Source: Candidatus Minimicrobia sp. QA0096 (GTDB lineage: Bacteria > Patescibacteriota > Saccharimonadia > Saccharimonadales > Saccharimonadaceae). Taken from it: a stretch of 32,000 nucleotides of DNA. The position numbers and the translations under genes are program-made. Positions 1,550 through 21,523 of the stretch are shown piece after piece. How positions within the stretch are numbered: position 1 is the stretch's first letter; the number at the start of each line of letters is the position of its first letter. The stretch lies in contig NZ_OZ017288.1 in assembly GCF_963967315.1 (NCBI RefSeq), positions 210,001 to 242,000 of the forward strand, written 5' to 3'. Under the pieces are notes generated by a model, which worked only from the letters and a program-made list of their open reading frames with translations, was not told the origin of the DNA and did not search any database.

Positions 1550-2074
1550 TTATAGCACATTCTGTTGCAACCAACAATACATCGCCACAGTCGCTGCCGC
1601 ACCAACATTTATAGAGCGAGTCGAGCCGAATTGCTCAATCGCCACAATCTGATCCGCAGCACCGGCCAGCTCTGCAGAAATCCCAGGCCCTTCTTGCCCA
1701 AATACCAAAACCGCACACTTCGGTAACCTCGTCTGCGACATATTAACGCTGCCCGAAATATTATCAATAGCAATAATTTCCCTGCCTTCATTACGCATTT
1801 TTTCAACAAACTCTTCCGTCGTCGCCAAATATGTAATGTGAAGATATTTATCCGTCATCATCGCACCGCGCTTATTCCATTGCCTGCGCCCAATCACATA
1901 AATCTGCCGCACGCCAAACGCATTAGCGCTCCTGACAATTGTCCCCATATTAAAATCTCGCTCGGTATTTTCCAGCGCAATCACCAAACCGTGATCTTCA
2001 GAATCCAACTCATTTATAATTTCCGATTCGCTCCGACCCTTAAACTTATCAATGACATTTCTTTTATCTTCCAT
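1550..2074 (-). CDS. SpoU/TrmH-family RNA 2'-O-methyltransferase
   Basis: 174-aa ORF with SpoU motifs: IVRSANAFGV, VFGQEGPGIS and the knot region IEQFGSTRSINVGAAATVAMY. Confidence 0.85.
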   Translation of the reverse strand: MEDKRNVIDKFKGRSESEIINELDSEDHGLVIALENTERDFNMGTIVRSANAFGVRQIYVIGRRQWNKRGAMMTDKYLHITYLATTEEFVEKMRNEGREIIAIDNISGSVNMSQTRLPKCAVLVFGQEGPGISAELAGAADQIVAIEQFGSTRSINVGAAATVAMYCWLQQNVL

Positions 2075-2128
2075 CTCTGTTATTTTATCAAAGTTCCTAA
2101 GCGAATAACAAAAGTCGAGAGCCTTCTA

Positions 2129-2344
2129 TTGACTTAATCACCATAGAATGGTATAAGTAATATTGGTTTTCGTTAATGAGTTGAGATTACTCCTCATCCG
2201 AAAACGTTCATTGACAAGCAGCCAAAACACGAGATGAGGTTTTATTTCTTCTAAGAGCTTTAAAGAGATAAAATCTCGTCTTGTGCATAAAGAATGCACG
2301 TATATCACACTGAGGGCGAGAAAACACCAGAAAGGTAAAGGGTC
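2129..2344 (+). promoter_or_regulatory. Cassette A: extended -10 promoter plus a conserved structured 5' leader of about 180 nt (unknown RNA family)
   Basis: TTGACT (2129-2134), 17-nt spacer, then TGgTATAAG. The downstream leader aligns with copies at 2688-2902 and 11015-11225(-). Shared hairpins P1-P3 show compensatory changes (for example P3 GTGCAT/ATGCAC here). Confidence 0.7.
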
Positions 2345-2575
2345 GTGAATAAAAAGACCAATACGACGGCACTGGAGAATTTTCTTCGTCGAGCAACCGC
2401 GTCTGTCGAGGGGAAGAAATTAACCCTCGACTATATCCCGAAAGAAGGTCTGATATCACACACGATCGCCACTGATGTAGAAGTTAGGAAACTTCTCGTC
2501 CAGCTAAGCGAAGAAGCCACTGCGCTGGCGCAAGTAGCACAAAGTCTTCTGGACTACACAGAGACAGAAGATTAA
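2345..2575 (+). CDS. Small acidic hypothetical protein (cassette A cargo, 76 aa, GTG start)
   Basis: ORF lies directly behind the conserved leader with purine-rich AAAGGTAAAGGG upstream. The start sits at the same relative position as the cargo ORFs of cassettes B and C. No recognisable domain. Confidence 0.5.
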   Translation: MNKKTNTTALENFLRRATASVEGKKLTLDYIPKEGLISHTIATDVEVRKLLVQLSEEATALAQVAQSLLDYTETED

Positions 2576-2581
2576 CAACGC

Positions 2582-2637
2582 GGGATATATGATGAGTTGA
2601 TCCACATTCTTTTTTATGGCTGCTTGTCATATATCCC
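2582..2637 (+). other. Cassette A 3' closing hairpin containing the anti-leader segment
   Basis: Arms are GGGATATATGA (2582-2592) and TCATATATCCC (2627-2637). The descending side GGCTGCTTGTCA (2618-2629) is the exact reverse complement of leader segment TGACAAGCAGCC (2212-2223). Confidence 0.65.
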
Positions 2638-2652
2638 CTGAAATAATTTTAG

Positions 2653-2678
2653 AATAGTCTCATTTGAGGCTATTTTTA
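2653..2678 (+). terminator. Rho-independent terminator of cassette A
   Basis: AATAGTCTC-attt-GAGGCTATT (one G.U pair) followed by a T run, immediately before the cassette B promoter. Confidence 0.55.
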
Positions 2679-2687
2679 TATATTCTA

Positions 2688-2902
2688 TTGACTTTTTTAC
2701 ACAAGTGTGGTATATATAATATCAGCTTTCGTTGATGAGTTGAGTAATTCCTTGTCCGAAAGTGAACTTTGACAGGCAATCGAACACAAGATGAGTTTTT
2801 ATTTCTTTTTTAAAACCGCCATAAGAGAGATAAGATCTCATCTTGTATTGTAAAGAACAATACGTCGCAATCCTGCGGATGAGAAAACAGGAAGATAGCA
2901 CA
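2688..2902 (+). promoter_or_regulatory. Cassette B: extended -10 promoter plus the conserved structured 5' leader
   Basis: TTGACT (2688-2693), 17-nt spacer, then TGgTATATA. The leader has P1 GATGAG/CTTGTC, a P2 hairpin of about 25 bp (2786-2846), P3 ATTGT/ACAAT, P4 CGCA/TGCG, and a GGATGAGAAAA block before the SD AGGAAG. Confidence 0.75.
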
Positions 2903-3331
2903 ATGTTTATCGATGTCTCTGACGATCTTTCCGCTACGACGAAAGACCTGAGTTCGAAATGGCACACCGCCATGGAGATCATCTGCAAGGACGAGTATAT
3001 CCCCGTCCTTCAAGTAAGGCGATTCGTCCAAATGATTCGCGACACGTGTCAACGAGTACAAGACCTCCAGGTCTATGCGAACATGTGTCTCGCGCAATCT
3101 CCAGCCATCGTTGTGGGTGTCAACATCTACAACGATGCTGTACGCGTCGCTTCAGCCCTAGAGGAGCTGAAAATCTTCGTTGACAAGCACGTCGCCATGA
3201 CGTACGAAGATGACAAGCAGTTCAAGAATATCTTGAACGAGATCGATGATACTCTTCTGTGCTTGATGTACGCAGGAGAATCCATGCAAAGCCGCGACGA
3301 AGCTGTACTCAGTGATCCCTGGATTGACTGA
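2903..3331 (+). CDS. Hypothetical acidic protein (cassette B cargo, 142 aa)
   Basis: This is the in-frame ATG at 2903 of the tracked ORF 2843..3331. I chose it because AGGAAG lies 8 nt upstream and because 2843-2902 is conserved leader RNA. No recognisable domain. Confidence 0.6.
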   Translation: MFIDVSDDLSATTKDLSSKWHTAMEIICKDEYIPVLQVRRFVQMIRDTCQRVQDLQVYANMCLAQSPAIVVGVNIYNDAVRVASALEELKIFVDKHVAMTYEDDKQFKNILNEIDDTLLCLMYAGESMQSRDEAVLSDPWID

Positions 3332-3340
3332 CAGTATATA

Positions 3341-3388
3341 GTCTACATGACAGGTGATTGTTCTTTTACGATTGCCTGTCATGTAGAC
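3341..3388 (+). other. Cassette B 3' closing hairpin containing the anti-leader segment
   Basis: A perfect 14-bp stem, GTCTACATGACAGG (3341-3354) with CCTGTCATGTAGAC (3375-3388). CGATTGCCTGTCA (3369-3381) is the exact reverse complement of leader TGACAGGCAATCG (2770-2782). Confidence 0.7.
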
Positions 3389-3404
3389 TCTGAATTTACA
3401 ACAT

Positions 3405-3435
3405 TAAAAATCACCCTGAGCATGGGTGATTTTCT
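3405..3435. terminator. Bidirectional terminator between cassette B and tRNA-Leu(CAG)
   Basis: AAAAATCACCC-tgagcat-GGGTGATTTT, with A/T runs on both sides. A near-identical copy lies at 10420-10450. Confidence 0.7.
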
Positions 3436-3458
3436 TATGATGAAAAAATGTCAAATAT

Positions 3459-3545
3459 TGGTGCGGATGAAAGGACTTGAACCTTCACGTACTTGCGTAC
3501 ACTAGCACCTGAAGCTAGCGCGTCTACCAATTCCGCCACATCCGC
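3459..3545 (-). tRNA. tRNA-Leu (anticodon CAG), class II with long variable arm, encoded CCA
   Basis: Manual cloverleaf: acceptor GCGGATG/CATCCGC, anticodon stem CTAGC/GCTAG, loop TTCAGGT, T-loop TTCAAGT; 87 nt. Confidence 0.9.
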
Positions 3546-5282: not shown

Positions 5283-5367
5283 GCGGATGTGGTGGAATTG
5301 GTAGACACGCATGCCTTAGGAGCATGTGCCTCACGGCGTGAAGGTTCAAGTCCTTTCATCCGCACCA
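5283..5367 (+). tRNA. tRNA-Leu (anticodon UAG), encoded CCA
   Basis: Manual cloverleaf: acceptor GCGGATG/CATCCGC, anticodon stem CATGC/GCATG, loop CTTAGGA, long variable arm; 85 nt. Confidence 0.9.
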
Positions 5368-5435
5368 TTTTAGAGTAAAAAACCCAATTGTCGCCCGAAT
5401 GGGCGATTTTTTTGAATTTTTACTCTAAAATGGTG
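5363..5435. repeat. 19-bp perfect inverted repeat that starts inside the tRNA-Leu 3' end and encloses a terminator
   Basis: CACCATTTTAGAGTAAAAA (5363-5381) pairs with TTTTTACTCTAAAATGGTG (5417-5435). The inner hairpin TCGCCC-gaat-GGGCGA plus a T7 run lies at 5391-5413. Confidence 0.8.
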
Positions 5436-5526
5436 AGATTTTACGCCCACGCTAGAACTTAGTTTAATACAAAGTCGCAAATCTGAGTAATCAGATTTGC
5501 TGGGTTTATTATATAATTTAAGTAGT

Positions 5527-6768
5527 ATGCATTATGGTCGATCAAAGAACTATCTATTTTACGCAATCGGATGGCACGAATGGTCAGAGAGTATTATTGT
5601 CGACGCTCGTCAAAAAGCCAGTAATATTGAAAAGAGTGTTTTTGAAGCAAACAGTCAGGAGCGAATAGTTGATCACATCGTGTCTGGCTATAACTTAGCC
5701 CCGCTGGTGCTGTTGGCGGACAACAAAACTCAGGACATAGTAGAGACCAAGGTAGATGTCACCGGCAACAATATGTATGTACAAGCATTTGACAATAGTC
5801 CAATCAGCGTGCCCGGCTATAAGGTCGTTATTACGATACCGTTCACTGGTTCCGCAGACCTATTCAAAGTCACTCCTACTAGAATACGAATGACGTATGA
5901 TGATGCCGTGATTACTGGCAACGAATTGACTTTTGCGTTGGAGTTTACTGAATCAAACACCACTGCGGAGCGGATAAAGGATGCATTAGACGGAAAGATA
6001 GCATCAATACAACAAAACATAGATTATATAAACAGCGACTTATCTGGGTTTGAAGAGCGTGTTAAAGGCGTGGTAACCGAAGCAGTCGCCAAACGTTTTG
6101 AGCAGATAAACAAACTCGACTCGATAAAGACTGCGCTGAATATACCACTTGAAAAATCAAACAATCCTAGCCCATTAAGTCAAGTTAGGATTTCAGTGCA
6201 AAAGCTGACTCCACTCTCAACCAAAAAAGATGAACCTGGTGGAACAATATCAAGCAAAGATTACGAAACGATACTTGAAACCATACGAAGCATGGGTGCA
6301 TCTATGGAAACCAACCGAGCGTCAGAATCAAAGGACGAAGAAGCGCTCCGGGATATGTTGCTGGTCGGCTTGTCTGCGAGCATAAAGAGTGGCGCGGTCG
6401 GCGGCGAGCTATTCCACAAGAGCGGCAAAACAGACATCTCAATACCCTTCAACAATAAAGCGACTTTTGTTGCTGAATGTAAGCTATGGAAAGGTCAGAA
6501 ATATATAGACAGAGGCATAGACCAGCTTTTGGGTTATTTGACTTGGCGCGACGCCAAAACCGCACTCGTTATATTCAATAAAGACAACGCTAACTTCTCT
6601 GATATACAAAGTAAAGTCGAACTCATATTTACTGAACGAAGCGACTACGTGCGCACAATCAAGCAGCGCGATGGTGAGTGGCGCTTTGTTATGACCAAAC
6701 CTGACGATAACGGCCGACAAGTTGAAGTTCACGTCATGCTGTTTGATGTATATGAGACAAAGTCATGA
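5527..6768 (+). CDS. Hypothetical protein with a C-terminal PD-(D/E)xK nuclease-like domain (island 1)
   Basis: The tracked ORF starts at TTG 5497; the ATG at 5527 follows a TATAAT at 5512-5517. The C-terminus reads EEALRDMLLVGL...GKTDISIP...FVAECKLWKG...IDQLLGYL, which fits the D...E-x-K pattern of PDDEXK-type nucleases. The N-terminal 280 aa are unrecognised. Confidence 0.6.
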   Translation: MHYGRSKNYLFYAIGWHEWSESIIVDARQKASNIEKSVFEANSQERIVDHIVSGYNLAPLVLLADNKTQDIVETKVDVTGNNMYVQAFDNSPISVPGYKVVITIPFTGSADLFKVTPTRIRMTYDDAVITGNELTFALEFTESNTTAERIKDALDGKIASIQQNIDYINSDLSGFEERVKGVVTEAVAKRFEQINKLDSIKTALNIPLEKSNNPSPLSQVRISVQKLTPLSTKKDEPGGTISSKDYETILETIRSMGASMETNRASESKDEEALRDMLLVGLSASIKSGAVGGELFHKSGKTDISIPFNNKATFVAECKLWKGQKYIDRGIDQLLGYLTWRDAKTALVIFNKDNANFSDIQSKVELIFTERSDYVRTIKQRDGEWRFVMTKPDDNGRQVEVHVMLFDVYETKS

Positions 6769-6789
6769 TGCGCCACGGAGGATGTACAG

Positions 6790-7668
6790 ATGACCAATAA
6801 AATCACGAAGATAACCAGGTATGCCATCCTAGAAGTTCTGGACACTTACATGGCCATCGACTTTTATGGCAGATTAAACGAAGTAGAGTTCTGGGAGCGC
6901 ATATTCAACCTAGAAAAACTACCATCTACCGACAGCCGTTACCCTGACATGAAGAGCGACCTGTGGCAGCACCGCGTGAATAACGATGATTGGGATGACA
7001 ACTGGTACATTGATAAGTTTGACCTGCTGGAAACAGAAGACGCCAAGTTCCTGAAATTCCTGGCCGAGTTCTTCCATCCGGAAGTTAGAGATATAAATTG
7101 GAACACCAAAAGAGTCTTGGCGACCATCAACAAAAACTTGGCACTTGATGGCGTAGAGTTGTATGCCAAGTCAAAAGTATCAGGCCGCGACATACTGGGT
7201 GCTAGAAATATCACGCCCGCCACACAGATAGATGAAACACCGCTCGCAATTATAGACAACGACTTTATATCGCTACAGATCAACAAAAATGTTTACGACC
7301 ACATCAAACAGTACTTAATCAACGAGGACTACTTCCATGCGGTGGACGAAGCATACAAATTGGTACGCAGCAAACTGCAAGAGATAACTGGCAACGAAAA
7401 AGCCACCGAAGTGTTCAGTATGAATGCCGAGAACAGAAAATACTACATGCAACTGTTTGGCAAATCGGACGGCACAACCCATGCCGAAAAAGATTTCTTC
7501 CGCGGTGTCGGTTACCTGAACCTGACCATACAATTTTTACGCAATGAAAAAGCGCACACACCGGCAGCAGCTCTTGAGCGTAACCTGGCTATTCACTACA
7601 TATCGCTTTCTAGTTTGGCCTATGATTTGATTACTCGCAATGAGACAGAACAAGATGACAAGGTCTGA
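6790..7668 (+). CDS. AbiJ-like protein: AbiJ-NTD-like N-terminus plus a C-terminal HEPN / TIGR02391-type domain
   Basis: GGAGGA RBS, 21 nt after the upstream stop. The C-terminus (DHIKQYL..HAVDEAYK...FLRNEKAH) carries the HEPN R-x4-H motif. The N-terminus (ITKITRYAILEVL...FWERIFNLEKLPSTDSRYP...FLKFLAEFFHPEVRD) resembles AbiJ N-terminal domains. Confidence 0.6.
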   Translation: MTNKITKITRYAILEVLDTYMAIDFYGRLNEVEFWERIFNLEKLPSTDSRYPDMKSDLWQHRVNNDDWDDNWYIDKFDLLETEDAKFLKFLAEFFHPEVRDINWNTKRVLATINKNLALDGVELYAKSKVSGRDILGARNITPATQIDETPLAIIDNDFISLQINKNVYDHIKQYLINEDYFHAVDEAYKLVRSKLQEITGNEKATEVFSMNAENRKYYMQLFGKSDGTTHAEKDFFRGVGYLNLTIQFLRNEKAHTPAAALERNLAIHYISLSSLAYDLITRNETEQDDKV

Positions 7669-7676
7669 TAAAACCC

Positions 7677-8131
7677 CGATGAGCCAGTAACGACAGTCAA
7701 AGAAGATAGGCTGATCGCACTGATTTTGCTAAAGGTCTAGCTGAAGTGCTCGTCAAAGTACCAAACTCTGAGTCATTCACGGTCGGGTTATATGGTGCTT
7801 GAGATAGTGGCAAAACATCCGTGGATAAAATAACCGAAGAATGTCTGACTCAAAAAAACATCCAAACGATATCGAGATTATGGACTTCAGTCCGTGGCTA
7901 TTTACTAGCATAGAAAACCTGCACATAATGTCCTTTGGCACACCAGCACAGGAACTCAGTAAGAAATCAGTAGCCGAGCTAACTGGCACAACCGGGGCGC
8001 CACTATTTGCTCGCATAGCATCTGGAGGTCTATCAGCCTTGAGTGGTAATAAGACCGTAAGTGCCGAAGCGCAATGCGCCTCAAAGTATATGATAGATTG
8101 TAAAATTAAATGCGGCACCTCTAGCAAGTAA
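7677..8131 (+). pseudogene. KAP-family P-loop NTPase pseudogene (N-terminal fragment, stop plus frameshifts)
   Basis: One frame reads DFAKGLAEVLVKVPNSESFTVGLYGA*DSGKTS, placing a TGA stop inside the Walker A motif GxxxxGKT. Homology continues in another frame (IEIMDFSPWLFTSIENL). There is no intact start and the region is truncated downstream. Confidence 0.6.
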
Positions 8132-8192
8132 AAAACTCATACTAACTTCGTGTAAAATGTTAATAACAACAAAAACACACACGGAGGTTAAT

Positions 8193-8517
8193 ATGAGTCA
8201 TAGTTATCTTACCCTAAACGATGGAAATAATATAGAGGTAAGGAATTTGCTTGTTATGAAAAAGTAAAAATGAATTAAACGTAGACTTTTATTTCGCAGA
8301 TCCATATAGCGCTTGGCAAAGAGGGACTAGCGAAAAATAGTAATGGCCTACTTAGAGAATTCTTTCCAAAGAAAACTGATTTAGCTAAAATCAAAAATAA
8401 AGAACTAGTAGATGTTATATATAAAAAAACTCCAGACCGAGAAAATGCCTAGAGTTTGATACGCCATTTGAACGTTTCATGCACGAATTAAATTTGTTAG
8501 GAGAGGTGTCGCAATAA
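8193..8517 (+). mobile_element. IS30-family transposase relic (internally deleted and frameshifted)
   Basis: An N-terminal fragment MSHSYLTLNDGNNIE is followed by C-terminal catalytic-domain pieces spread over three frames: FYFADPYSAWQRGTSE / NSNGLLREFFPKKTDLAKI / NSRPRKCLEFDTPFERF. Confidence 0.65.
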
Positions 8518-8576
8518 TTATTGCAATTCAACATAAAATAAAGAGAGTCTTTAGGGATCCGTAACTCTTATATGCT

Positions 8577-8661
8577 TGGTGTGGATGAAAGAACTTGAAC
8601 CTTCACGCCGTGAGGCACATGTTCCTAAGACATGCGTGTCTACCAATTCCATCACATCCGC
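8577..8661 (-). pseudogene. Degenerate inverted copy of tRNA-Leu(UAG)
   Basis: Full-length 85-nt copy with 5 substitutions relative to 5283-5367. The anticodon-stem change is compensated (CATGT/ACATG). C2.A71 and A10.C25 mismatches arise in the acceptor and D stems. Confidence 0.6.
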
Positions 8662-8737
8662 ATAGTTTGATATTGTGAAATATTTCTGTAAGTAAGTATA
8701 TCGGTAGATAAAATAAATTACCACATTTTTAATATTT

Positions 8738-10030
8738 TTATTTAACAGGAATTTTCTTTGCTAAATCTAATAACAACTCAATCAATTGCGAACTCATAAT
8801 AGGAGCCTCCTCTTTGCTTTTAAATAATCCTTTTGATTTTTTGACTTGATTATTCTCTTCATTATTGAATATTCGGTATGCAACTGTTTTGATAATTTCA
8901 TTTCTTAGTTTTACATCACCTTCAATACTTAGCAGATAAGGCTTTAGTGCTTTAAGTTGATGAGCTGTTCGTTGGTTAGCTCGCTGTGCTTTGCGGTGCT
9001 CGCTTGATTGAGTGGCTGTATATCCTGCTACACCTCCAGCAAATAGCATAACAAATGCTCGAGCTACTAAGGGTTGCCATGACACGGCCTTAGTATTAAT
9101 AACTTCATAAACTACCCAGCAAGAAAATCCTAACATTGCAAGCAGTAAAATTGCTGTTACTACACTCCATATATAAGCAACTATTTTATCTTCCTTAGCA
9201 CTACTAGAATAATCGTGGATTAGTGTTTTATCTCCAGCCATATTCAATAATTCATCTATTCTAGCAAGACTATCTTCTGCCTTCGCCTCAGTAGCGTTTA
9301 GCTTTTTATCTATGTCATCCGTAATGCGATCGGCTTCATTACTCTTTTTGCTAAATGTCTCTTCAATTGTACGTTTCTGCTCTTCAATAAATTTATTAAC
9401 CATCTCATTGCGTACATTTTCAGATTTTGTAAATGATAATTGCTGCTCAGCAGAGATTTTATTTGACGAATCTTTTATGTCTTTTAAATCTTTATTAAGT
9501 TCAGCCACTTTTGCACCAAGTGTTTCAAACTCGTTCTTAGCTTCAGTAACTTTTTCGTCAATGGTCTTTTCTGAGGCGGCTCCTTTAGCGGATATGCTAT
9601 TAATCTCTTTTGCTGCTACACGCTTATATTGACCGACTGACCTATTCAATCCCGCAATAGCTTTGCGAGTTTCTTTTATGTCCATAGCGGGTGTTAATGA
9701 AGGGATGTATGACAATATATTATCGATATATCCATTCATATAAGAAATATCTAGATACGCATCATTACGATAGTTTTGCCAGTTATCAAAGCACGAGCTT
9801 ACACCTGAAAGATAGTTGTTGATATTGTCAAGATTTGATATTGATATTAAGCGGTCGTCTGTATTATTAAGTCTATCTATTAAAAGTTCAATGACTAGTT
9901 TTGCCCGATTAATATCATCGATTGCTTCAAGAGATACATTACCAAGATCTACCTCATCAAATCTGGTTAATAGTTTCTTGGCTGCAGTGTATGTGGCACT
10001 ATTCTGTATACGATCTTCCCATTTACTCAT
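8738..10030 (-). CDS. Coiled-coil protein with two C-proximal transmembrane helices (unknown function)
   Basis: 430-aa ORF in a visibly AT-rich segment. It has its own extended -10 promoter (TGATATAAT on the minus strand, -10 at 10091-10096) and an AAGGA RBS. The N-terminal 270 aa are heptad-like and charged. Hydrophobic segments are IVAYIWSVVTAILLLAMLGFSCWVVY and LVARAFVMLFAGGVAGY. Confidence 0.65.
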   Translation of the reverse strand: MSKWEDRIQNSATYTAAKKLLTRFDEVDLGNVSLEAIDDINRAKLVIELLIDRLNNTDDRLISISNLDNINNYLSGVSSCFDNWQNYRNDAYLDISYMNGYIDNILSYIPSLTPAMDIKETRKAIAGLNRSVGQYKRVAAKEINSISAKGAASEKTIDEKVTEAKNEFETLGAKVAELNKDLKDIKDSSNKISAEQQLSFTKSENVRNEMVNKFIEEQKRTIEETFSKKSNEADRITDDIDKKLNATEAKAEDSLARIDELLNMAGDKTLIHDYSSSAKEDKIVAYIWSVVTAILLLAMLGFSCWVVYEVINTKAVSWQPLVARAFVMLFAGGVAGYTATQSSEHRKAQRANQRTAHQLKALKPYLLSIEGDVKLRNEIIKTVAYRIFNNEENNQVKKSKGLFKSKEEAPIMSSQLIELLLDLAKKIPVK

Positions 10031-10345
10031 GAGGCATTATTCCTTTTTGCTTAGTTGATTCGCTACCCCTTATTAAAAACTTTAAGTACCATTATATCAC
10101 CCTTGTTTTTAAAATTGACCACCTCTAAGAGTAGAGAACTTTACTTATTCAATTTGGCTAATTAAACTCCGCCCCAGACTCCAGAATTGACTCCTTGCGC
10201 CCCGTACAATAACAAACAAAAAACAACGAGCTAGAACTCTTATATCATTTTTGCCTTTATTGCCCATTATTTGCCTGTTGTAAGCCTTTTGTCGGCGGTG
10301 TGCGTAGTTCCTCCGCTAAGTGAAAAGAAAGCTTAATCATCTAGT

Positions 10346-10398
10346 CTTAGGAGCATGTGCCTCACGGCGTGAAGGTTCAAGTCCTTTCATCCGCACCA
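10346..10398 (+). repeat. 53-bp exact direct repeat of the 3' part of tRNA-Leu(UAG), an attR-like island boundary
   Basis: CTTAGGAGCATGTGCCTCACGGCGTGAAGGTTCAAGTCCTTTCATCCGCACCA is identical to 5315-5367. No tRNA 5' half lies upstream. Confidence 0.85.
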
Positions 10399-10419
10399 AG
10401 AATTGAATTTTTTACCATA

Positions 10420-10450
10420 AGAAAATCACCCATAGTTAGGGTGATTTTTA
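10420..10450. terminator. Bidirectional terminator between the tRNA-Leu fragment and cassette C
   Basis: AAAATCACCC-atagtta-GGGTGATTTT. This is homologous to 3405-3435 in inverted orientation. Confidence 0.7.
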
Positions 10451-10472
10451 ATATCATAAATTCACATTTCAA

Positions 10473-10525
10473 AGAAGGGGTTGACAGGCAACCGTAAGTA
10501 GAACGGACACTTATCAACCCTTTCT
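10473..10525 (-). other. Cassette C 3' closing hairpin containing the anti-leader segment
   Basis: Arms at 10473-10484 and 10514-10525 (GGGTTGA/TCAACCC core). The minus-strand CGGTTGCCTGTCA (10482-10494) complements leader TGACAGGCAATCG (11132-11144) with one G.U pair. Confidence 0.6.
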
Positions 10526-10561
10526 CATGGTCACGGCGAGATGCATGGACGTTTTAAATCA

Positions 10562-11014: not shown

Positions 11015-11225
11015 TGTTCCATCTTTCTTCTCATCCTCACGGGAACGTGATATGTACTATTCTTCAGTACAAGATGAGATTTCATCTCTCTCAACGATTC
11101 TTAAAAAAGAAATAAAACCTCATCTTGTATTCGATTGCCTGTCAAAGTTCACTTTCGGACAAGGATTTACTCAACTTGTCAACGAAAGCTACTTTCATTT
11201 ATACCATACTCGTGCAAAAAGTCAA
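11015..11225 (-). promoter_or_regulatory. Cassette C: extended -10 promoter plus the conserved structured 5' leader
   Basis: On the minus strand: TTGACT (11225-11220), 16-nt spacer, then TGgTATAAA (-10 at 11203-11198). The leader has P1 GACAAG/CTTGTC, a long P2, P3 GTACT/AGTAC, P4 CACG/CGTG and a GAGGATGAGAAGA block. Confidence 0.75.
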
Positions 11226-11417: not shown

Positions 11418-11939
11418 ATGGAATCTTTTTACGTTACGTCAACTCATCTTGACATAGATATGGCGACTGAACCTCATCCTTCTGGATTGGTTATATTCTC
11501 GCGAGAATTATCTACAAACGGGAAGCCGACTGGGCACATAATAGTATCTCCCGAGAACCATCATACAGATGTATATTACGATTATCTTACAAGGAATGAA
11601 GCTTTAGTAGCAGAACGTGAACATTGGGGAGTAAAAAATCAACAAGGCAAGATCGTAAATTACTTCGCCCGAACAGAACCTGCTTACGGAATATATATAC
11701 CCCGGTTAGACAGCATGCCAGACTACCCCGAACTACTAATAGCTTGTACGAAGAATAAAAAAGCGAAGAGATTAGCTCATCAAGAATTAAGAGTAGACTC
11801 GACGCAAGTTAAATTGGCGACTCAAGCTCTCGGTATAGTAATGGCTGATCTAGATATTTTACATAGAGCCGACGGTAAAACTCGGCTGATAAATTTCCCA
11901 AAAGACCAACTTGACGAACAGCAAATTACAGTATATTAA
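11418..11939 (+). CDS. Hypothetical protein (173 aa)
   Basis: An ORF of reasonable length in an otherwise empty interval after tRNA-Val. No recognisable motif. Confidence 0.45.
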   Translation: MESFYVTSTHLDIDMATEPHPSGLVIFSRELSTNGKPTGHIIVSPENHHTDVYYDYLTRNEALVAEREHWGVKNQQGKIVNYFARTEPAYGIYIPRLDSMPDYPELLIACTKNKKAKRLAHQELRVDSTQVKLATQALGIVMADLDILHRADGKTRLINFPKDQLDEQQITVY

Positions 11940-16874: not shown

Positions 16875-16950
16875 GCGGGTATAGCTCAGTTGTTAGAGCG
16901 CTTCCTTGCCATGGAAGAGGCCAGGAGTTAGAGTCTCCTTACCCGCACCA
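16875..16950 (+). tRNA. tRNA-Gly (anticodon GCC), encoded CCA, with atypical D-loop and T-loop nucleotides
   Basis: Acceptor GCGGGTA/TACCCGC, anticodon stem CTTCC/GGAAG, loop TTGCCAT. The D-loop is AGTTGTTA (U at position 19) and the T-loop is TTAGAGT (A at position 56). Confidence 0.8.
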
Positions 16951-16995
16951 ATTCGATATTTAGCCATCCGAATGGGTGGTTTTTTCGTATTTATA
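16948..16995 (+). repeat. Left copy of a 48-bp direct repeat bounding island 2 (includes the tRNA-Gly CCA end and its terminator)
   Basis: CCAATTcGATATTTAGCCATCCGAAtGGGTGGTTTTTTCGTATTTATA recurs at 21476-21523 with 2 mismatches. It contains the terminator CCATCC-gaat-GGGTGG plus a T6 run. Confidence 0.8.
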
Positions 16996-17016
16996 CCCGC
17001 CAATATACAACAAAAG

Positions 17017-17219
17017 TGCTATAATAAAAGAGTCCAACCAACAATATAACATTTAGGGATTACCTAATATTTTTGGTATTCAAACCAGGAAAAACGGGCA
17101 CTTGCTCGAAAGACATTTGGTTTGAATTCCGATTGTTGGTTGGACGCCTAGAGTAGGTGTCCGTTTTTTTATTACGGACAATAAATACTCACATAATAGC
17201 AACTAACTCAAAGGCGTCC
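17017..17219 (+). promoter_or_regulatory. Extended -10 promoter and a highly structured leader of about 190 nt upstream of the methyltransferase
   Basis: TGcTATAAT at 17017-17025. A perfect 14-bp outer stem (GTCCAACCAACAAT 17032-17045 with ATTGTTGGTTGGAC 17132-17145) encloses hairpin 17053-17067 and the stem ATTCAAACCA/TGGTTTGAAT (17078-17127). A further hairpin TGTCCGT/ACGGACA lies at 17158-17180. Confidence 0.55.
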
Positions 17220-18287
17220 ATGAGTATAGAATCACTAGAAACAAATGTCATAATCCAAGGTGACTGCGTTGAAATACTAAAAACCATACCAGACAAATCA
17301 GTAGATTTAATTTTTGCCGACCCACCCTATAACCTGCAGCTCAAAGGTGACCTGTGGCGACCAAATAACACAAAAGTATCTGCAGTCAGTGATGACTGGG
17401 ACAAATACGACAGTTTTGCAACTTACGACGATTTTACAACCAAATGGCTGACGGAGTGTCGGCGTGTGCTTAAAGACAATGGCACAATTTGGGTCATTGG
17501 AAGTTACCATAATATTTTCCGCGTTGGAAAAATCGTTCAAGACCTCGACTACTGGATTTTTAACGACATTCTTTGGATCAAAACAAACCCTATGCCGAAC
17601 TTCAAGGGCACACGCTTTAATAACTCGCACGAAACACTCATATGGGCGGGTAAGTCCGAAAAGTCAAAGCCGACTTTCAACTACAAAACTATGAAAACAT
17701 ATAACGAAGATAAGCAAATGCGTAGCGATTGGTTTATTCCGATATGTAGCGGACAAGAACGCGTAAAAATTAATGGCGAAAAAGCACACTCGACGCAAAA
17801 ACCACTTGCTTTACTCCGTCGAATTATCAATGCAACATCAAAGCCTGGCGATATTGTGCTTGACCCATTTCTCGGCAGTGGCACAACCGCAGTTGCCGCA
17901 AAAGAACTAGGGCGGCAATATATCGGTATTGAGCGTGACGATACCTATATTAAAGTTGCGAAGCAACGACTCGACAAAACAACACTGCTTGATGAAGCAT
18001 TGGTATCAAGCAAGTTAGAGGCAAAAGCACCGCGCGTCGCCTTTGGCTTGCTGGTTGATATCGGACTTATCAAGAGTGGAACGATACTTACAAGTAAAGA
18101 CGGTAAATACTCGGCGGCAGTTACCGTAAATGGCTCGCTAAAAAGTGGCGACATAGAGGGCTCTATTCATAAGGTCGGTGCAATTCTACAAAACCAACCG
18201 TCATGCAATGGATGGATGTTTTGGTATATGAATAATCTACCAATTGACAATATCCGTCAAAAGTATCTGGAGGAAAATCATGCTTGA
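17220..18287 (+). CDS. Beta-class N6-adenine DNA methyltransferase, CcrM/M.HinfI-like (probable GANTC specificity)
   Basis: Motif IV DLIFADPPYN precedes motif I FLGSGTTAVAAKELGRQYIGIERD. Long stretches are collinear with CcrM as I recall it (VLKDNGTIWVIGSYHNIFRVG, NPMPNFKGTRF, HETLIWA, QMRSDW, KAHSTQKP), and there is a C-terminal extension. I preferred the ATG at 17220 to the tracked GTG at 17157, which lies inside a leader hairpin. Confidence 0.85.
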   Translation: MSIESLETNVIIQGDCVEILKTIPDKSVDLIFADPPYNLQLKGDLWRPNNTKVSAVSDDWDKYDSFATYDDFTTKWLTECRRVLKDNGTIWVIGSYHNIFRVGKIVQDLDYWIFNDILWIKTNPMPNFKGTRFNNSHETLIWAGKSEKSKPTFNYKTMKTYNEDKQMRSDWFIPICSGQERVKINGEKAHSTQKPLALLRRIINATSKPGDIVLDPFLGSGTTAVAAKELGRQYIGIERDDTYIKVAKQRLDKTTLLDEALVSSKLEAKAPRVAFGLLVDIGLIKSGTILTSKDGKYSAAVTVNGSLKSGDIEGSIHKVGAILQNQPSCNGWMFWYMNNLPIDNIRQKYLEENHA

Positions 18288-19161
18288 ATATGAGATTTTC
18301 AAAAATATTTTTAATGAAAAAATATTCGCAAAGTCAAAACCTGATTTGCTCAAGAAAGTCGCCGAGTACCCCGATAGATACGTGGGGCTATTCCGCCCGA
18401 CCAAGCCAGAGGCAAAATTGCTACAAAACCTGTTGCAGTCAAATGAAATCCGTTTTGGCGACGCGTTCGAGGTGGCAATCAAGCAATACTTTATCAACGA
18501 GGGCTGGCAGCCGTTACCGCAAAAGATTACATCGAAAGAAGGTGACGCTCTCGACATAGATCAGTTGCTCGTCAAAGATGACAAAGTACTATTCATTGAG
18601 CAAAAGGTACGCGACGACCATGATTCAACCAAAAAACGTGGTCAGATTAGTAACTTTGAAAAGAAACTTGAGACACTTGTCGACATTTATGGTGATAGAG
18701 TAACGTGGGGATTTTTCTATTTCATTGACCCAAGCCTTGTCAAAAACCGAAACTTTTATCAGCCGGAGCTACAAAAACTGCAAGAATCGTGGGGTGTGCA
18801 CTTGTCAGTGTCGTACGGACAAGACATGTTTAACCAGCTCGACTTATCTCATATTTGGCCTGACATCATGAATAATCTACAAAAATGGCGTCAAGACATA
18901 CCAGACTTACCAAACGTCAATTTTGACAGTAGCCCCAAAGAATCTGCCGAAGAAATAAAAGATCTACCGCTACGCACATTCCGTAAGCTCTTTGATGATG
19001 AGCGAATTGTAAGCCAGATACTGCCCGTGTTGTTCCCGACCGGTGCAACGCTTGCGATACTTGAGCCATATTTTCGCGCACAAAACATAATGGTTACGCA
19101 TAAAATAGCTGATTCAATACTTCTATATCTGCAATCATCGCCCACCAAAATATTGTTGTAA
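18280..19161 (+). CDS. Type II restriction endonuclease (PD-(D/E)xK), partner of the CcrM-like methyltransferase
   Basis: The ATG at 18280 follows GGAGGA and overlaps the MTase stop by 8 nt. The candidate catalytic region is DALDIDQLL...VLFIEQKVRDD (D...E-x-K). Specificity is inferred from context only. Confidence 0.65.
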   Translation: MLEYEIFKNIFNEKIFAKSKPDLLKKVAEYPDRYVGLFRPTKPEAKLLQNLLQSNEIRFGDAFEVAIKQYFINEGWQPLPQKITSKEGDALDIDQLLVKDDKVLFIEQKVRDDHDSTKKRGQISNFEKKLETLVDIYGDRVTWGFFYFIDPSLVKNRNFYQPELQKLQESWGVHLSVSYGQDMFNQLDLSHIWPDIMNNLQKWRQDIPDLPNVNFDSSPKESAEEIKDLPLRTFRKLFDDERIVSQILPVLFPTGATLAILEPYFRAQNIMVTHKIADSILLYLQSSPTKILL

Positions 19162-19223
19162 ATCGCCCCACATCACGCCTGTTTAATTAAGCCGTAGTGC
19201 GACGAGTGTCCGCCAAATAGATT

Positions 19224-19511
19224 TTACTTTATCTTGATGTGCTTTGAGCCACGAAACGCTTTTTTGAGCATATTCTTCATCTCGCGCTCTGCGTAGTTCA
19301 TTACCATTGCGTCAACCTGCTCTTTGTTTGCCGTATATATAAACATCAGTGGTTCGGCGGCGTGATGACAATTCTCACAGATGATGTCCTGCAGTTCACC
19401 AGTTTTGTCATCTTTAGCAATAGGCGCAAAGAACGATATAAGGCACTGCGGACACTGGAGTCTGTGGTTGCCATCCTTATCTGGGTCTGATGTGATCGTT
19501 AAGTCAGCCAT
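19224..19511 (-). CDS. Small zinc-ribbon protein (95 aa)
   Basis: It has CPQC ... CENCHH cysteine pairs, lies 2 nt downstream of the HNH gene stop, and is apparently co-transcribed. Confidence 0.6.
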   Translation of the reverse strand: MADLTITSDPDKDGNHRLQCPQCLISFFAPIAKDDKTGELQDIICENCHHAAEPLMFIYTANKEQVDAMVMNYAEREMKNMLKKAFRGSKHIKIK

Positions 19512-19513
19512 AG

Positions 19514-19843
19514 CTAGTAGCTCCTCACTGCACAGTAGTTGAGCGAAAGACTATCACCCTTTGCGCGGTTGTTTTGCCATTGTAGCGGTTGCAAGTTAGT
19601 GATGACATCAGTACCTCCGAGCGATTTAGGTATGATATGGTCAATCTCCCAGCCACATCTACTTGTTGTATCTCCGTAACTCCCCCATTCAATGAGAGCA
19701 CCACACACGTCGGCACGAACGTATGCAGAGTTATAGCCTTGTACTATACGTGCCTTATTCCATACGTCAATTTTTTGTTGTTCTGTATATTGTTTTTTGG
19801 TTAGTACTCGCAAAAGCGGAGTGTATTGATGATTGTATGCCAT
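19514..19843 (-). CDS. Stand-alone HNH endonuclease (109 aa)
   Basis: The HNH core is GWEIDHIIPKSLGGTDVITNLQPLQWQNNRAKGD. A strong RBS (AAGGAGAAAAATC) precedes the ATG. Confidence 0.85.
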   Translation of the reverse strand: MAYNHQYTPLLRVLTKKQYTEQQKIDVWNKARIVQGYNSAYVRADVCGALIEWGSYGDTTSRCGWEIDHIIPKSLGGTDVITNLQPLQWQNNRAKGDSLSLNYCAVRSY

Positions 19844-20073
19844 GATTTTTCTCCTTTTTTATATGGCTCAACATTGTTGTTGTGCTAGAATAGGAGTGTA
19901 CGAGGGAAGCAAATCTTGCACACTGGTACTGGCGCGAGCCAGTACTTTTCCTATTCTAACGTTGTATTACGGACGGGTACCCTCCGCTTTGACGACCCGC
20001 CCACACAGCTCCACCGTTTGTGTTTTACAGGTTCGTATTCTCATTATATCACAACTGCACACTTATATGTCAA
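19844..20073 (-). promoter_or_regulatory. Promoter plus a GC-rich structured leader of about 195 nt for the HNH / zinc-ribbon operon
   Basis: On the minus strand: TTGACA (20073-20068) and TGATATAAT (-10 at 20048-20043). Stems are GGGCGGGU/ACCCGUCC (20003-19971; the G.U pair forms only on this strand), GUACUGGC-ucgc-GCCAGUAC (19945-19926), and the enclosing TAGAATAGGA/TCCTATTCTA (19958-19886). Confidence 0.55.
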
Positions 20074-20097
20074 CTATACAAACAAATAGTCGTAATA

Positions 20098-20127
20098 TTG
20101 ACATAGTTACGCGCGATGTAGTATACT
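20098..20127 (+). promoter_or_regulatory. Promoter of the XRE-Panacea/toxin operon
   Basis: TTGACA (20098-20103), 18-nt spacer, TATACT (20122-20127). The RBS AAAGGAAG lies 5 nt before the ATG at 20153. Confidence 0.6.
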
Positions 20128-20152
20128 GTACATATAAGAGAAAGGAAGCAAA

Positions 20153-20833
20153 ATGACTCTTGAAAAGAATCTACGCGAACTCCGGGCGATCTACGGACTA
20201 TCACAAGATGATGTGGCGAAAGCGATTGATGTGAGTCGCAGTAGTGTTGTAGCCACCGAAAAAGGCGAGCGTGAACTGAGTAGTGAAGAACTAGGTAAGC
20301 TTGCTGATTTTCTTGGTGTCGATATCATTGATCTTTTATCACAAGAAATCCCAAATTACGAGAAATACCGCGAAATGATAGTGGAAACGCTGCGTCGCTA
20401 TACAGAATACGCAGGCAAAAGCGCAACGAAGACGCTACTCGCAAAACTTATCTACCTTGCAGACTTTGCATGGTATTATGAGCATTTGCAGCCGATGAGT
20501 GGCATGAAGTACCGTCGCTTGCAGTATGGTCCAGTACCCGACCAGTATTTTCGTATTGTTGATGAGCTTATTGATGAAGGTAAGGTATCACTCAAGGTTG
20601 GCGATGAGGCCCAGTGGCTCAATCTCACGCGATCTGCACAAGATACTCCACCTCAGCACCTCTCGACTAGTGAACTTGACTTGATTGATAAAATTGCACA
20701 AAAATGGAAAGATTCAAATACAAAAGAAATCGTACACTTTACACACACACAACTTCCTTGGCAAATCTGTAGGCAAAACGAATATATACCCTACGAGCTA
20801 ATTACCCAGGAAGAGCCGAGCCGTGTTTACTGA
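20153..20833 (+). CDS. XRE-family HTH fused to a DUF4065 (Panacea/SocA-like) antitoxin domain
   Basis: The N-terminus LRELRAIYGLSQDDVAKAIDVSRSSVVATEKGERELSSEEL is an HTH_3-type motif. The C-terminus KLIYLADFAWYYEHLQPMSGMKYRRLQYGPVPDQY is typical of DUF4065. Confidence 0.75.
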   Translation: MTLEKNLRELRAIYGLSQDDVAKAIDVSRSSVVATEKGERELSSEELGKLADFLGVDIIDLLSQEIPNYEKYREMIVETLRRYTEYAGKSATKTLLAKLIYLADFAWYYEHLQPMSGMKYRRLQYGPVPDQYFRIVDELIDEGKVSLKVGDEAQWLNLTRSAQDTPPQHLSTSELDLIDKIAQKWKDSNTKEIVHFTHTQLPWQICRQNEYIPYELITQEEPSRVY

Positions 20834-21236
20834 TAACTACCGTGTACTATTTGAAGATTACTCCGAACGCCACTACGCCAAAGCGTTCAAAAAGAATTAT
20901 GGCAATCAATGGCTTGTAACACGCAAAGCGCTCGTAGCGCAGTTTGCACACATTGATCAGCTAGTGCTTAATGGAAGAACAAATCCTCCGATTCATCGAA
21001 CTGACGACAATAAGGAATGGATTATCAAACATGAGTTTGTCATTGCGGGACGCAAACAATCTGCAAAAGACTCTGGAAACAGAGTGATTTTATATGTAAA
21101 TCATAATGATCGCACCGTTCGTGTTTTACTGCTTTACCACAAGGGTTATCTGGGTAAATCTGCAAGTGAAACTGCTACTTGGCGAGGTATTATAAAACAA
21201 GAGTTTAAAGACTTATTGACTAGGTTTAGTCTTTAG
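20823..21236 (+). CDS. Putative toxin partner of the Panacea antitoxin (137 aa, family not recognised; possibly RelE/ParE-like fold)
   Basis: The GTG start overlaps the upstream stop by 11 nt. The segment FVIAGRKQSAKDSGNRVILYVNHNDRTVRVLLLYHKG loosely resembles addiction-module toxin cores. The assignment rests mainly on context. Confidence 0.45.
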   Translation: MFTDNYRVLFEDYSERHYAKAFKKNYGNQWLVTRKALVAQFAHIDQLVLNGRTNPPIHRTDDNKEWIIKHEFVIAGRKQSAKDSGNRVILYVNHNDRTVRVLLLYHKGYLGKSASETATWRGIIKQEFKDLLTRFSL

Positions 21237-21475
21237 GTTTTACCAATAACCTACGAGGTTAAGACACTTAAGCACGGCAGCTTTGCCACCTAAACGAAAC
21301 ACCAACACCTCTACTGTCATAACAGTAGTCGTCCCTGCCCAGAAAACACCTTTTTCAACTAAAAAATAAAAAAATCGGCAGGGAAAATTTCAAAAAGATA
21401 ATTCAAAGGATTTTTCTAGTGGGACGAGCAGACGCTTGCGCTCGAACTAGGTCCGAGCTTTGGTGTATATTGCTG

Positions 21476-21523
21476 CCAATTAGATATTTAGCCATCCGAA
21501 CGGGTGGTTTTTTCGTATTTATA
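21476..21523 (+). repeat. Right copy of the 48-bp direct repeat bounding island 2
   Basis: CCAATTaGATATTTAGCCATCCGAAcGGGTGGTTTTTTCGTATTTATA, with 2 mismatches relative to 16948-16995. Confidence 0.8.

Follow-up and report, generated by a model that had tools for sequence, protein, structure and literature searches.

In T4-type phages, ORFans are flanked by elements named PeSLs, which combine a sigma-70-like promoter with a stem-loop terminator, and recombination shuffles the genes (Arbiol et al. 2010, PMC2839356; Comeau et al. 2014, PMC4122927). Integron attC cassettes and the rAID-1 arrays of Bacteroidales hold small variable genes with repeated palindromic spacers and an adjacent tyrosine recombinase (10.1101/471110). 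Pairing between the ends of one mRNA has been described in hok, whose message encodes a membrane toxin of about 50 aa, has an antisense RNA partner and controls access to its Shine-Dalgarno (SD) sequence by 5'-3' pairing after 3' trimming (PMC9841398), and in icaR of Staphylococcus aureus, where the 3' untranslated region (UTR) pairs with the 5' UTR of the same mRNA at the SD region (PMC3868564). Here we describe a frame of non-coding sequence that surrounds three small genes in a 32,000-nucleotide stretch of Candidatus Minimicrobia sp. QA0096 (contig NZ_OZ017288.1, positions 210,001 to 242,000 of the forward strand; this whole stretch is called the window). Each cassette (A, B and C) consists, in this order, of a near-consensus, extended -10 promoter, a leader of about 175-180 nt (hairpin P1, a box of 13-14 nt, hairpins P2, P3 and P4, and a purine-rich SD region), an open reading frame (ORF), a 3' hairpin of about 20 bp and a terminator. 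The anti-box, as we call the 3' arm of this hairpin, is complementary to the box, so that the unit is a bipartite UTR frame and more than a leader alone. The frame is undescribed as an RNA motif; by type, it joins pairing of the mRNA ends to a portable regulatory cassette.

In the way it works, the frame comes closest to the PeSLs, in which a promoter and a stem-loop flank orphan genes and mediate shuffling. PeSLs, however, are compact, lie in phage hyperplastic regions and are without a multi-hairpin leader, a separate 3' hairpin and 5'-3' complementarity, whereas the frame is chromosomal in a bacterium of the Candidate Phyla Radiation (CPR), measures about 330 nt, is about five times larger, and its helices covary as RNA. 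With hok it shares mRNA ends that pair over a long range in competition with local folds, but the encoded proteins (cargos) are diverse, those modelled are soluble, the box is far from the SD sequence, and no antisense RNA was evident, although no search was aimed at one. Pairing of the 3' UTR with the 5' UTR in one mRNA, as predicted for the frame, is also the feature of icaR; there, in contrast, it concerns a single gene and the SD sequence is the target, while the frame pairs an upstream box between P1 and P2 and is multi-copy, portable and class-specific. The small orphan genes, each followed by an imperfect palindrome, their tandem arrangement and the strain-variable content resemble integrons and rAID-1 arrays, but integron cassettes are promoterless and depend on a recombinase, whereas the frame has its own promoters and no recombinase was found in the scanned neighbours. 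The ompA 5' UTR and the Bacillus aprE and ermC leaders carry 5'-terminal stem-loops that stabilise mRNA, with the hairpin a few nucleotides from the 5' end, as is predicted for P1; these are single hairpins of single genes and not a conserved multi-helix frame with a 3' partner. To our knowledge, 5'/3'-UTR pairing in bacteria is otherwise known from isolated genes (hok, icaR, hbs). Our literature searches returned no paper describing the frame and nothing on structured or non-coding RNA in Saccharibacteria.

A first-pass annotation, made from the letters of the window, had proposed three copies of a promoter and a structured leader of about 180 nt (A, 2129-2344(+); B, 2688-2902(+); C, 11225-11015(-)), each ahead of an unrelated small ORF. 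A repeat search of the window found B and C as a 135-nt arm pair (87%) and A and B as a 62-nt direct repeat (77%), and the P1 word TTTCGTTRAYRAGTTGAG occurs exactly three times against 0.28 expected. Pairwise identity is 69-81% between the 5' modules and 38-52%, which is the noise level, between the coding sequences (CDSs) behind them, and none of the three proteins has detectable similarity to the other two. The promoter layout was also read as proposed, with TTGACT, a 16-17-nt spacer and TGnTATAxx in all three copies, as was the purine block ahead of the ribosome binding site (RBS). What had been missed is a conserved 3' module of about 110 nt after each ORF, composed of the hairpin, a short CTGAA-containing spacer and an intrinsic terminator. 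The 3' hairpin typically begins a few nucleotides past the stop codon (median about 6 nt), and the position of the anti-box within the module is constant, while the distance between box and anti-box varies from 209 to 1036 nt. The box word has six matches in the window, all of them accounted for by the three boxes and three anti-boxes.

Each cassette is a complete transcription unit with a promoter-like site and a terminator, and its structured parts extend from the predicted start of the transcript to a point ahead of the terminator. Conserved terminators follow each cassette; AAAAATCACCC...GGGTGATTTTCTT is common to cassettes B and C, and the 3' end of the frame is predicted at the terminator GGGTGATTTT. 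In cassette B the terminator is convergent with tRNA-Leu(cag) at 3459-3545(-). The layout TTGACT/TTGACA, about 17 nt and TGnTATAAA was seen in 76 of 81 distinct upstream regions (-35 TTGACT in 64, TTGACA in 12), and it predicts transcription to start within a few nucleotides of the foot of P1. Logan contigs were considered as transcript evidence and discarded, since they run past the promoter and are therefore DNA.

Relatives were searched with a degenerate pattern (P1 loop, CCGAAA and box) against one genome per GTDB species. The pattern matched 101 stretches, 97 of them in Candidatus Saccharibacteria (70 assemblies, Nanosynbacter, Minimicrobia and TM7 HOT-352 among them), and the remaining four are chance matches without an anti-box. 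Together the window and the related loci hold 133 copies of the pattern and 95 distinct complete cassettes. The frame is specific to human-associated (mouth, gut) Saccharibacteria, namely Nanosynbacter, Minimicrobia, TM7 HOT-352 and relatives, and occurs essentially nowhere else.

The strongest feature of the frame is the long-range helix between box and anti-box. The box had been described as a single-stranded segment; it is instead one strand of this helix. In 29 distinct box/anti-box combinations compared at 13 positions, 99.2% of the cells are paired, against 27-54% with slid partners. Compensatory double changes were found at 5 of the 13 positions (G-C/A-U; U-A/A-U/C-G and others), and the covariation score of 0.373, compared to 0.175 in shuffles, was reached by 0 of 500 shuffles. 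The cells that are not Watson-Crick comprise 17 G.U, 2 A.C and 1 other. The box classes GGCAATCG, AGCAGCCA, AGCAGCCT and AGCAGATG, together with wobble variants, are each paired with their own anti-boxes, and also in the window, where two classes coexist, the box of each cassette fits its own anti-box; a match that holds even where two classes share a genome favours pairing in cis. As the anti-box was found as the best complement of the box, the resulting search bias was tested with shuffled boxes: 12 of 13 Watson-Crick pairs were obtained in 2 of 960 trials and 13 of 13 in none, whereas the true boxes reach 13 of 13 in 24 of 32 cassettes. Across 74 distinct cassettes, the 13 nt of the anti-box are 97% Watson-Crick (937/962) to the distant box, compared with 69% Watson-Crick, 23% G.U and 8% unpaired to the local arm of the hairpin. 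The distant partner is thus the better complement, which indicates that selection keeps the far pairing, something a purely local hairpin would not need.

The two pairings of the anti-box exclude each other. Of 92 full-length minimum free energy (MFE) folds, 44 contain the long-range helix and 48 the local hairpin, and none contains both. The energy of the long-range duplex alone is -20 to -23 kcal/mol, that of the local hairpins -22 to -36, and we read the 3' element, as modelled, as a near-isoenergetic two-state element with mutually exclusive pairings. In the window, the full-transcript MFE of cassette A holds the long-range helix (13/13 bp), as does that of cassette C, where box and anti-box pair at 14 of 14 positions including one G.U, and in cassette B the local arm that mimics the box reads ATGACAGGTGATTG and gives a local hairpin of -35.5 kcal/mol. 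A toehold model, in which six class-specific nucleotides of the anti-box would be free in the loop of the 3' hairpin, was rejected: none of the six is unpaired in the main class, and the other classes leave 1-2 of them free.

Covariation extends to every helix of the leader. Among 33 diverse leaders, RNAalifold recovers P1 as two stacked helices, P2 with 22 bp, and P4; 98.4% of the cells in these helices are paired, against 45-55% with slid partners, and twelve pairs show changes on both sides, against 0-4. Neither the observed pairing nor the observed covariation score was reached in any of 500 shuffles. P3, which abuts P2, carries its conserved AAAGA(A) loop on stems of at least 10 kinds, among them TGCAT/ATGCA, TATTGT/ACAATA, TATCGT/ACGATA and GTGTG/CACGC. 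The compensatory stems first noticed in the three copies (P1 as ATGAG/CTCAT in A, GATGAG/CTTGTC in B and GACAAG/CTTGTC in C, as well as P3 and P4) hold, as does the G.U-rich P2, with 22-25 bp in the window and 22-28 bp across the frame. The conservation does not come from a protein reading frame, all three frames of the leader being interrupted by stop codons. In a variant leader class, which has the box AGCAGATG and precedes cargos of 225-274 aa, P1 and the box are retained, and the remainder is of different sequence and the same shape, including a 28-bp analogue of P2 (z = -5.5). In the window, cassette A (fold z = -4.46) is predicted to form P1, P2 and P3 with the box unpaired, and the centroid of cassette C (z = -3.88) shows P1, P2 and P4, also with the box unpaired; in cassette B (z = -2.52) in the MFE the box takes the 3' arm of P1 as its partner and P1 is not formed. 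Most copies have GAUGAG/CUUGUC, with two G.U pairs, as the inner stem of P1, and its 3' arm can pair with the box (GACAGG) instead. This alternative (2724-2782 in the window, and equivalents) may be a second switch at the 5' end that is tied to the state of the 3' element. A leader peptide in P2 (MRFYFF...) was rejected because in several copies GCG or GUG stands in place of the AUG, with matching changes in the 3' arm of P2, and the stop position varies; likewise, judged by eye only, the geometry does not fit a K-turn or C/D-box reading of the GAUGA/CUGA words.

That the frame acts as RNA of the sense strand, as had been suggested from the G.U pairs of P2, agrees with the folding of both strands. 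The sense strand of P2 is the more stable in 62 of 62 comparisons (MFE -29.2 vs -18.7 for the antisense), that of the 3' hairpin in 67 of 70 (-27.6 vs -19.3), and for P1 the values are -11.2 and -7.7; overall the sense strand folds 3.5-10 kcal/mol better and G.U far outnumber A.C. In three orthologous C-type cassettes with full-length CDSs, the 5' module is 89-92% and the 3' module 91-94% identical while the CDS falls to 52-71%, and two orthologues with shorter CDSs have 77-86% module identity; judging from these sequences, the UTRs appear to be under selection.

The cargos fall into 17 BLAST clusters of 63-274 aa, of which hhalign joins 0, 1 and 6 (91%), the commonest superfamily, and perhaps 8 and 10, leaving at least 10 families without detectable relationship by BLAST and hhalign. 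The proposed unrelatedness holds for the three proteins of the window, 76, 142 and 150 aa (BLASTP; hhalign probabilities 0.4-1.3%), and fails for clusters 0, 1 and 6, which are remote homologues. Cargo A has seven homologues, all behind class II leaders; cargo C has 23 homologue clusters down to 39% identity, and all that were fetched are syntenic with the same leader ahead. The cassettes occupy chromosomal sites between SpoU, tRNA-Leu, a gene for an FAD oxidase and tRNA-Val: in 49 of 95 a convergent tRNA-Leu(cag or tag) is found no more than 100 nt from the end, and upstream of 21 lies a divergent tRNA-Val(cac). The same sites carry different cargos across genomes, with seven clusters at the tRNA-Val/tRNA-Leu(tag) site and also seven, partly the same, at the tRNA-Leu(cag) site. 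The adjacency to tRNA genes or island junctions that had been claimed for all copies applies to B and C, while A lies beside B and the SpoU methylase gene with no tRNA.

Chimeric boxes (GGCAGCCA, GGCAGTCA) occur in the leaders L070(-), L058(+) and L029(-) of related loci. There P1 and the start of the box are of class I, the end of the box and the 3' module of class II, and G.U pairs maintain the pairing; the frame seems to have recombined within its 14-nt box. Whatever the frame does as RNA, the conserved flanks of about 215 and 110 nt would behave as homology arms for cargo exchange, which would explain the differing cargo at the same few tRNA-linked sites, and the probable mechanism is homologous recombination, perhaps after natural transformation. 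Truncated cassettes, in a genome otherwise near-identical to the window, were also seen at L002 6316-6383(-) and L007 875-943(+), where the cassette has its promoter and P1 as far as GTTGAGTAAA, halfway through the hairpin, before unrelated sequence takes over ahead of a Ham1-like gene; both stand directly downstream of tRNA-Val.

A sense-strand RNA frame with a real 5'-3' pairing is in our view highly probable. The structure is well supported, and from it we infer the function. On balance we favour a composite reading, in which the bipartite UTR frame is portable and acts as a two-state post-transcriptional device, with flanks that double as homology arms for the exchange of cargo. The anti-box would have two possible partners, a local arm that mimics the box with many wobble pairs and the box itself, 200-1000 nt upstream in the leader, and in the latter case a 13-bp, almost purely Watson-Crick helix would form in cis in the cell and close the mRNA on itself. 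P1 would serve as a 5'-terminal protective stem-loop, and the box could be captured either by the anti-box or, as the MFE of cassette B has it, by P1 through its 3' arm. Together, the terminal stem-loop and the switchable closure would set the fate of the mRNA, that is its stability and perhaps its translation. The 3' hairpin would form first during transcription, and ribosomes terminating about 6 nt (median) upstream could open it, so that closure is favoured and the fate of the mRNA is coupled to translation; this translation-coupled switch in particular is only a tentative suggestion. The first-pass annotation had spoken of a conserved structured RNA with variable cargo, either a cis-regulatory RNA or a mobile expression cassette. 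Structure, strand and cassette behaviour (the same two syntenic sites with different cargo) agree with this, but the description was incomplete without the 3' module and the end-pairing, and the regulatory function is putative.

Several observations weigh against the composite reading. The transcription start, the 3' end and the expression are all deduced from sequence, and a consensus promoter scanner called none of the cassette promoters, which is explained by -10 hexamers (TATAAG, TATATA, TATAAA) without the final T. In cofolding of two fragments the long-range helix wins in 24 of 83 cases, closure not being favoured in the commonest class, and the local hairpin of class I is very stable (about -33 kcal/mol). 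The box stands between P1 and P2, about 115-130 nt upstream of the SD sequence and start; at this distance closure would not obviously mask or expose the RBS. The stop codon in the cargo-C family lies about 35 nt from the hairpin, which does not fit a ribosome trigger. The copies are related by descent and gene conversion, so the counts of compensatory cells overstate independent events, and the long-range signal is carried by only about five box classes. Finally, hairpins of single-stranded DNA (ssDNA) also tolerate G.T, and strand bias alone leaves room for a role at the ssDNA level, which we disfavour.

A bolder version of the composite reading takes the frame as a lineage-specific portable mRNA chassis, a standard frame for exchangeable small genes whose class-coded helix reversibly circularises the transcript. 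Termination of translation, or processing, would flip the 3' element from the local to the long-range state and so couple the use of the message to its survival or re-initiation, and the same frame would supply the homology arms that move cargo among sites, strains and prophages. We regard this as possible but doubtful.

Among the alternatives outside the composite reading, the one that survives best, though still unlikely, is a cis-regulatory leader that senses a factor in trans (a protein, small RNA or metabolite), the cassettes forming one regulon and the complementarity being secondary or acting in trans. One leader ahead of unrelated genes does have the look of a regulon, the unpaired segments are highly conserved (P1 loop GUUGAGUAAAUC, P3 loop AAAGA, purine block GGAUGAGAA), and the recurring purine words could be protein-binding sites. 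However, the leader had been matched to no known riboswitch, T-box or leader family, and Rfam 15, with its riboswitch, T-box, leader, ribozyme, group I/II intron and retron families, bears this out: only seven tRNAs were detected in the window at gathering thresholds, and even at E <= 10 over 2000-3500 the best matches, miRNA precursor models and RAGATH-10 at 24 bits, fall short of the thresholds of 41-100 and are noise. No conserved alternative fold that sequesters the SD sequence or switches between terminator and antiterminator was seen, the class-matched box and anti-box within each cassette favour action in cis, and the 32-kb window holds no further copies of either.

Slightly less likely is a cassette system at the level of DNA, in which box, mimic and anti-box would be recombination sites (attC- or rAID-1-like) or ssDNA hairpins for an HUH or tyrosine recombinase. 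An imperfect palindrome with strand-biased mismatches stands at the 3' end of every ORF, direct and inverted copies of one word flank it, cargo differs at identical sites, the cassettes stand in tandem (A then B) and adjoin tRNA genes and integrated islands, and the rAID-1 arrays provide a precedent of repetitive intergenic sequence around small orphan genes (10.1101/471110). Nevertheless, no recombinase, integrase, Xer, HUH or reverse transcriptase (RT) domain was found in the scanned neighbours of the window and the related loci. The 3' hairpins read CTACATGACAGG...CCTGTCATGTAG or GGGTTGATA...TGTCAACCC and are without the attC core sites RYYYAAC...GTTRRRY; a comparison with rAID-1 gave no XerD-like recombinase and no immunity-protein homology above threshold, and one with retrons gave no RT domain in the neighbours, a translated-looking ORF between the repeats and no Rfam retron match. 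Each cassette has its own promoter and terminator, the bounds of the structure coincide with those of the predicted transcript, P2, P3 and P4 covary though they would have no role in recombination, the mimic arm departs from the box by transitions that preserve G.U pairs of the RNA type, and the cassettes sit at few syntenic sites and are not dispersed. Between leader and 3' hairpin the space is taken up by a forward ORF in nearly all 95 cassettes, although in a few a reverse ORF is about as long or longer; this orientation also led us to reject an inversion of the segment between box and anti-box, as in phase variation.

It is improbable that the frame has no dedicated RNA function, the cassettes being a paralogous, fast-evolving family or phage morons whose flanks are alike through gene conversion and whose hairpins are incidental terminators or stabilisers. 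The remote homology of clusters 0, 1 and 6 would fit this, flanks of promoter and terminator around ORFans are known from T4-type phages (PeSLs; PMC2839356), and in L001 prophage and cassette meet exactly where P1 starts. Gene conversion homogenises, though, and does not produce compensatory changes and class-specific matching, nor does this explanation fit the variant leader class with the same architecture in different sequence, the better complementarity maintained with the distant than with the local partner, the 10 or more cargo families without detectable relationship, or the chromosomal and syntenic position of most cassettes. The phage moron was rejected since the INPHARED set (50,697 records) gave no match and IMG/VR a single contig, a prophage-host junction. 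That contig is a real prophage (TerL, SSB, Sak4, ExoVIII), its homology to phage-free genomes begins exactly at P1, and L059 carries the same cassette and a 224-aa gene between SpoU and the FAD oxidase gene; the cassette is thus host DNA, or was acquired through the shared 20-nt promoter/P1 word.

At L001 11250-11320 and L049 4640-4730(-), a promoter region of this Saccharibacteria prophage (TerL, SSB, Sak4-like, ExoVIII, HJ resolvase) ends in TTTATATATATCAGCTTTTG, a word that also starts some cassette leaders. In L001 the phage DNA is joined to the cassette exactly inside the 5' arm of P1, whereas in L049 the same phage sequence runs into other genes and the cassette lies 3 kb further. Either an attachment or recombination site in the promoter/P1 of the cassette or a deletion between two copies of the word may account for the junction.

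Least probable of all is a hok-like type I toxin-antitoxin (TA) or post-segregational module, with fold-back inhibition holding a toxic mRNA inert until 3' processing, since for all the long-range pairing against competing local structures that is the hallmark of the hok mRNA (PMC9841398) and a region rich in defence and TA genes, the cargos (63-274 aa) are hydrophilic and include no short hydrophobic peptide, their families are too diverse for one toxin type, the pairing is away from the SD and start region, and no antisense promoter or RNA is evident, with no search aimed at antisense RNA.

Structured RNAs specific to the CPR are almost unexplored, and the frame adds a large new motif of about 130 copies with a closing helix common to many unrelated genes. 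Class-coded pairing across a whole family would make 5'/3'-UTR closure testable by natural covariation, and the chassis, if true, would be a general cassette system at the level of RNA without a described bacterial counterpart. The frame also marks a rapidly exchanged pool of small orphan proteins at tRNA-linked hot spots of ultrasmall epibionts, which plausibly act in interactions with host, phage or competitors. In addition, it could be used as a native expression frame for Nanosynbacter, relatives of which have been reported to be naturally transformable.

The cargos gave no match in Pfam, PADLOC, PHROGs or NCBIfam, and the best match to an immunity family, Imm5 (E = 0.047), was below threshold. 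AF2 models are generic helical bundles, a four-helix bundle in cargo B (pLDDT 77; best Foldseek match in the PDB E = 0.045) and a long helical hairpin in cargo C (pLDDT 81; no informative Foldseek match), and Foldseek gave nothing below E = 0.04 against the PDB. Cargos are hydrophilic, and the modelled B and C are helical and soluble. Defence and TA genes abound nearby (AbiJ, a restriction-modification methylase, a Panacea antitoxin), and roles of the cargos in immunity, anti-defence or host interaction are plausible, if speculative.

Table 1. Positions of the parts of cassettes A, B and C in the window.
Cassette	Feature	Position	Strand	Details
A	Promoter-like site	2129-2157	+	-35 TTGACT 2129-2134, 17-nt spacer, TGg+TATAAG 2149-2157; read from sequence
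A	Leader	2165-2344	+	P1 2166-2205, box TTGACAAGCAGCCA 2211-2224, P2 2229-2284, P3 2285-2297
A	Leader, 3' part	up to GTG at 2345	+	Purine block and SD
A	Cargo A, 76 aa	2345-2575	+	ORF; cargo cluster 3
A	3' hairpin GGGATATATGATGAG...CTTGTCATATATCCC	2582-2637	+	Anti-box TGGCTGCTTGTCAT 2617-2630, complementary to box 2211-2224
A	Intrinsic terminator	2651-2683	+	Terminator scan; directly ahead of cassette B promoter
B	Promoter-like site	2688-2716	+	TTGACT 2688-2693, 17-nt spacer, TGg+TATATA 2708-2716
B	Leader	2722-2902	+	P1 2724-2763, box TTGACAGGCAATCG 2769-2782, P2 ~2786-2846, P3 2845-2863
B	Leader, 3' part		+	P4 2866-2877, purine block ~2878-2886, SD ~2889-2896
B	Cargo B, 142 aa	2903-3331	+	Cluster 0, of the commonest cargo superfamily (clusters 0, 1, 6)
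B	3' hairpin	3340-3389	+	Starts 8 nt past stop; anti-box CGATTGCCTGTCAT 3369-3382, complementary to box 2769-2782
B	Terminator AAAAATCACCC-TGAGCAT-GGGTGATTTTCTT	3406-3437	+	Read from sequence; conserved in most cassettes
C	Promoter-like site	11198-11225	-	TTGACT 11225-11220, 16-nt spacer, TGg+TATAAA 11206-11198
C	Leader	11015-11192	-	P1 11190-11151, box TTGACAGGCAATCG 11145-11132, P2 11129-11068, P3 ~11070-11054
C	Leader, 3' part		-	P4 11050-11037, purine block and SD 11036-11016
C	Cargo C, 150 aa	10562-11014	-	ORF; cluster 4
C	3' hairpin	10471-10527	-	Anti-box CGGTTGCCTGTCAA 10494-10481, complementary to box 11145-11132
C	Terminator	10417-10449	-	Abuts 53-nt tRNA-Leu(tag) 3' fragment 10346-10398, which marks the island junction

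Two islands lie in the window. That at 5283-10398 is bounded by 53-nt direct repeats (100%) of the 3' end of tRNA-Leu(tag) (5315-5367 and 10346-10398) and carries a protein with AbiJ_NTD3 and Hypoth_Ymh (6790-7668), a second tRNA-Leu(tag) (8577-8661(-)) and two proteins of 423 and 430 aa without family match, the latter with a weak hint of SLATT; no recognisable integrase was found in it. The 430-aa gene is present at the corresponding spot beside the cassette in L004-L010, L013 and L014, and in L003, L011, L012 and L015 the FAD oxidase gene directly follows the cassette. The second island, 16948-21523, is located at the 3' end of tRNA-Gly(gcc) between 48-nt repeats (96%; 16948-16995 and 21476-21523). 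It contains an N6/N4 DNA methylase with a RAMA domain (17157-18287), overlapped by a 305-aa ORF without family match that may be its restriction partner, an HNH protein (19514-19843, -), and an HTH and SocA/Panacea antitoxin (20153-20833) with an overlapping ORF of 137 aa. Adjoining the hot spot, between tRNA-Val and BipA, 11418-11939(+) encodes a conserved protein of 173 aa without family match, and its gene is kept at the tRNA-Val/BipA position in most of the related loci examined.

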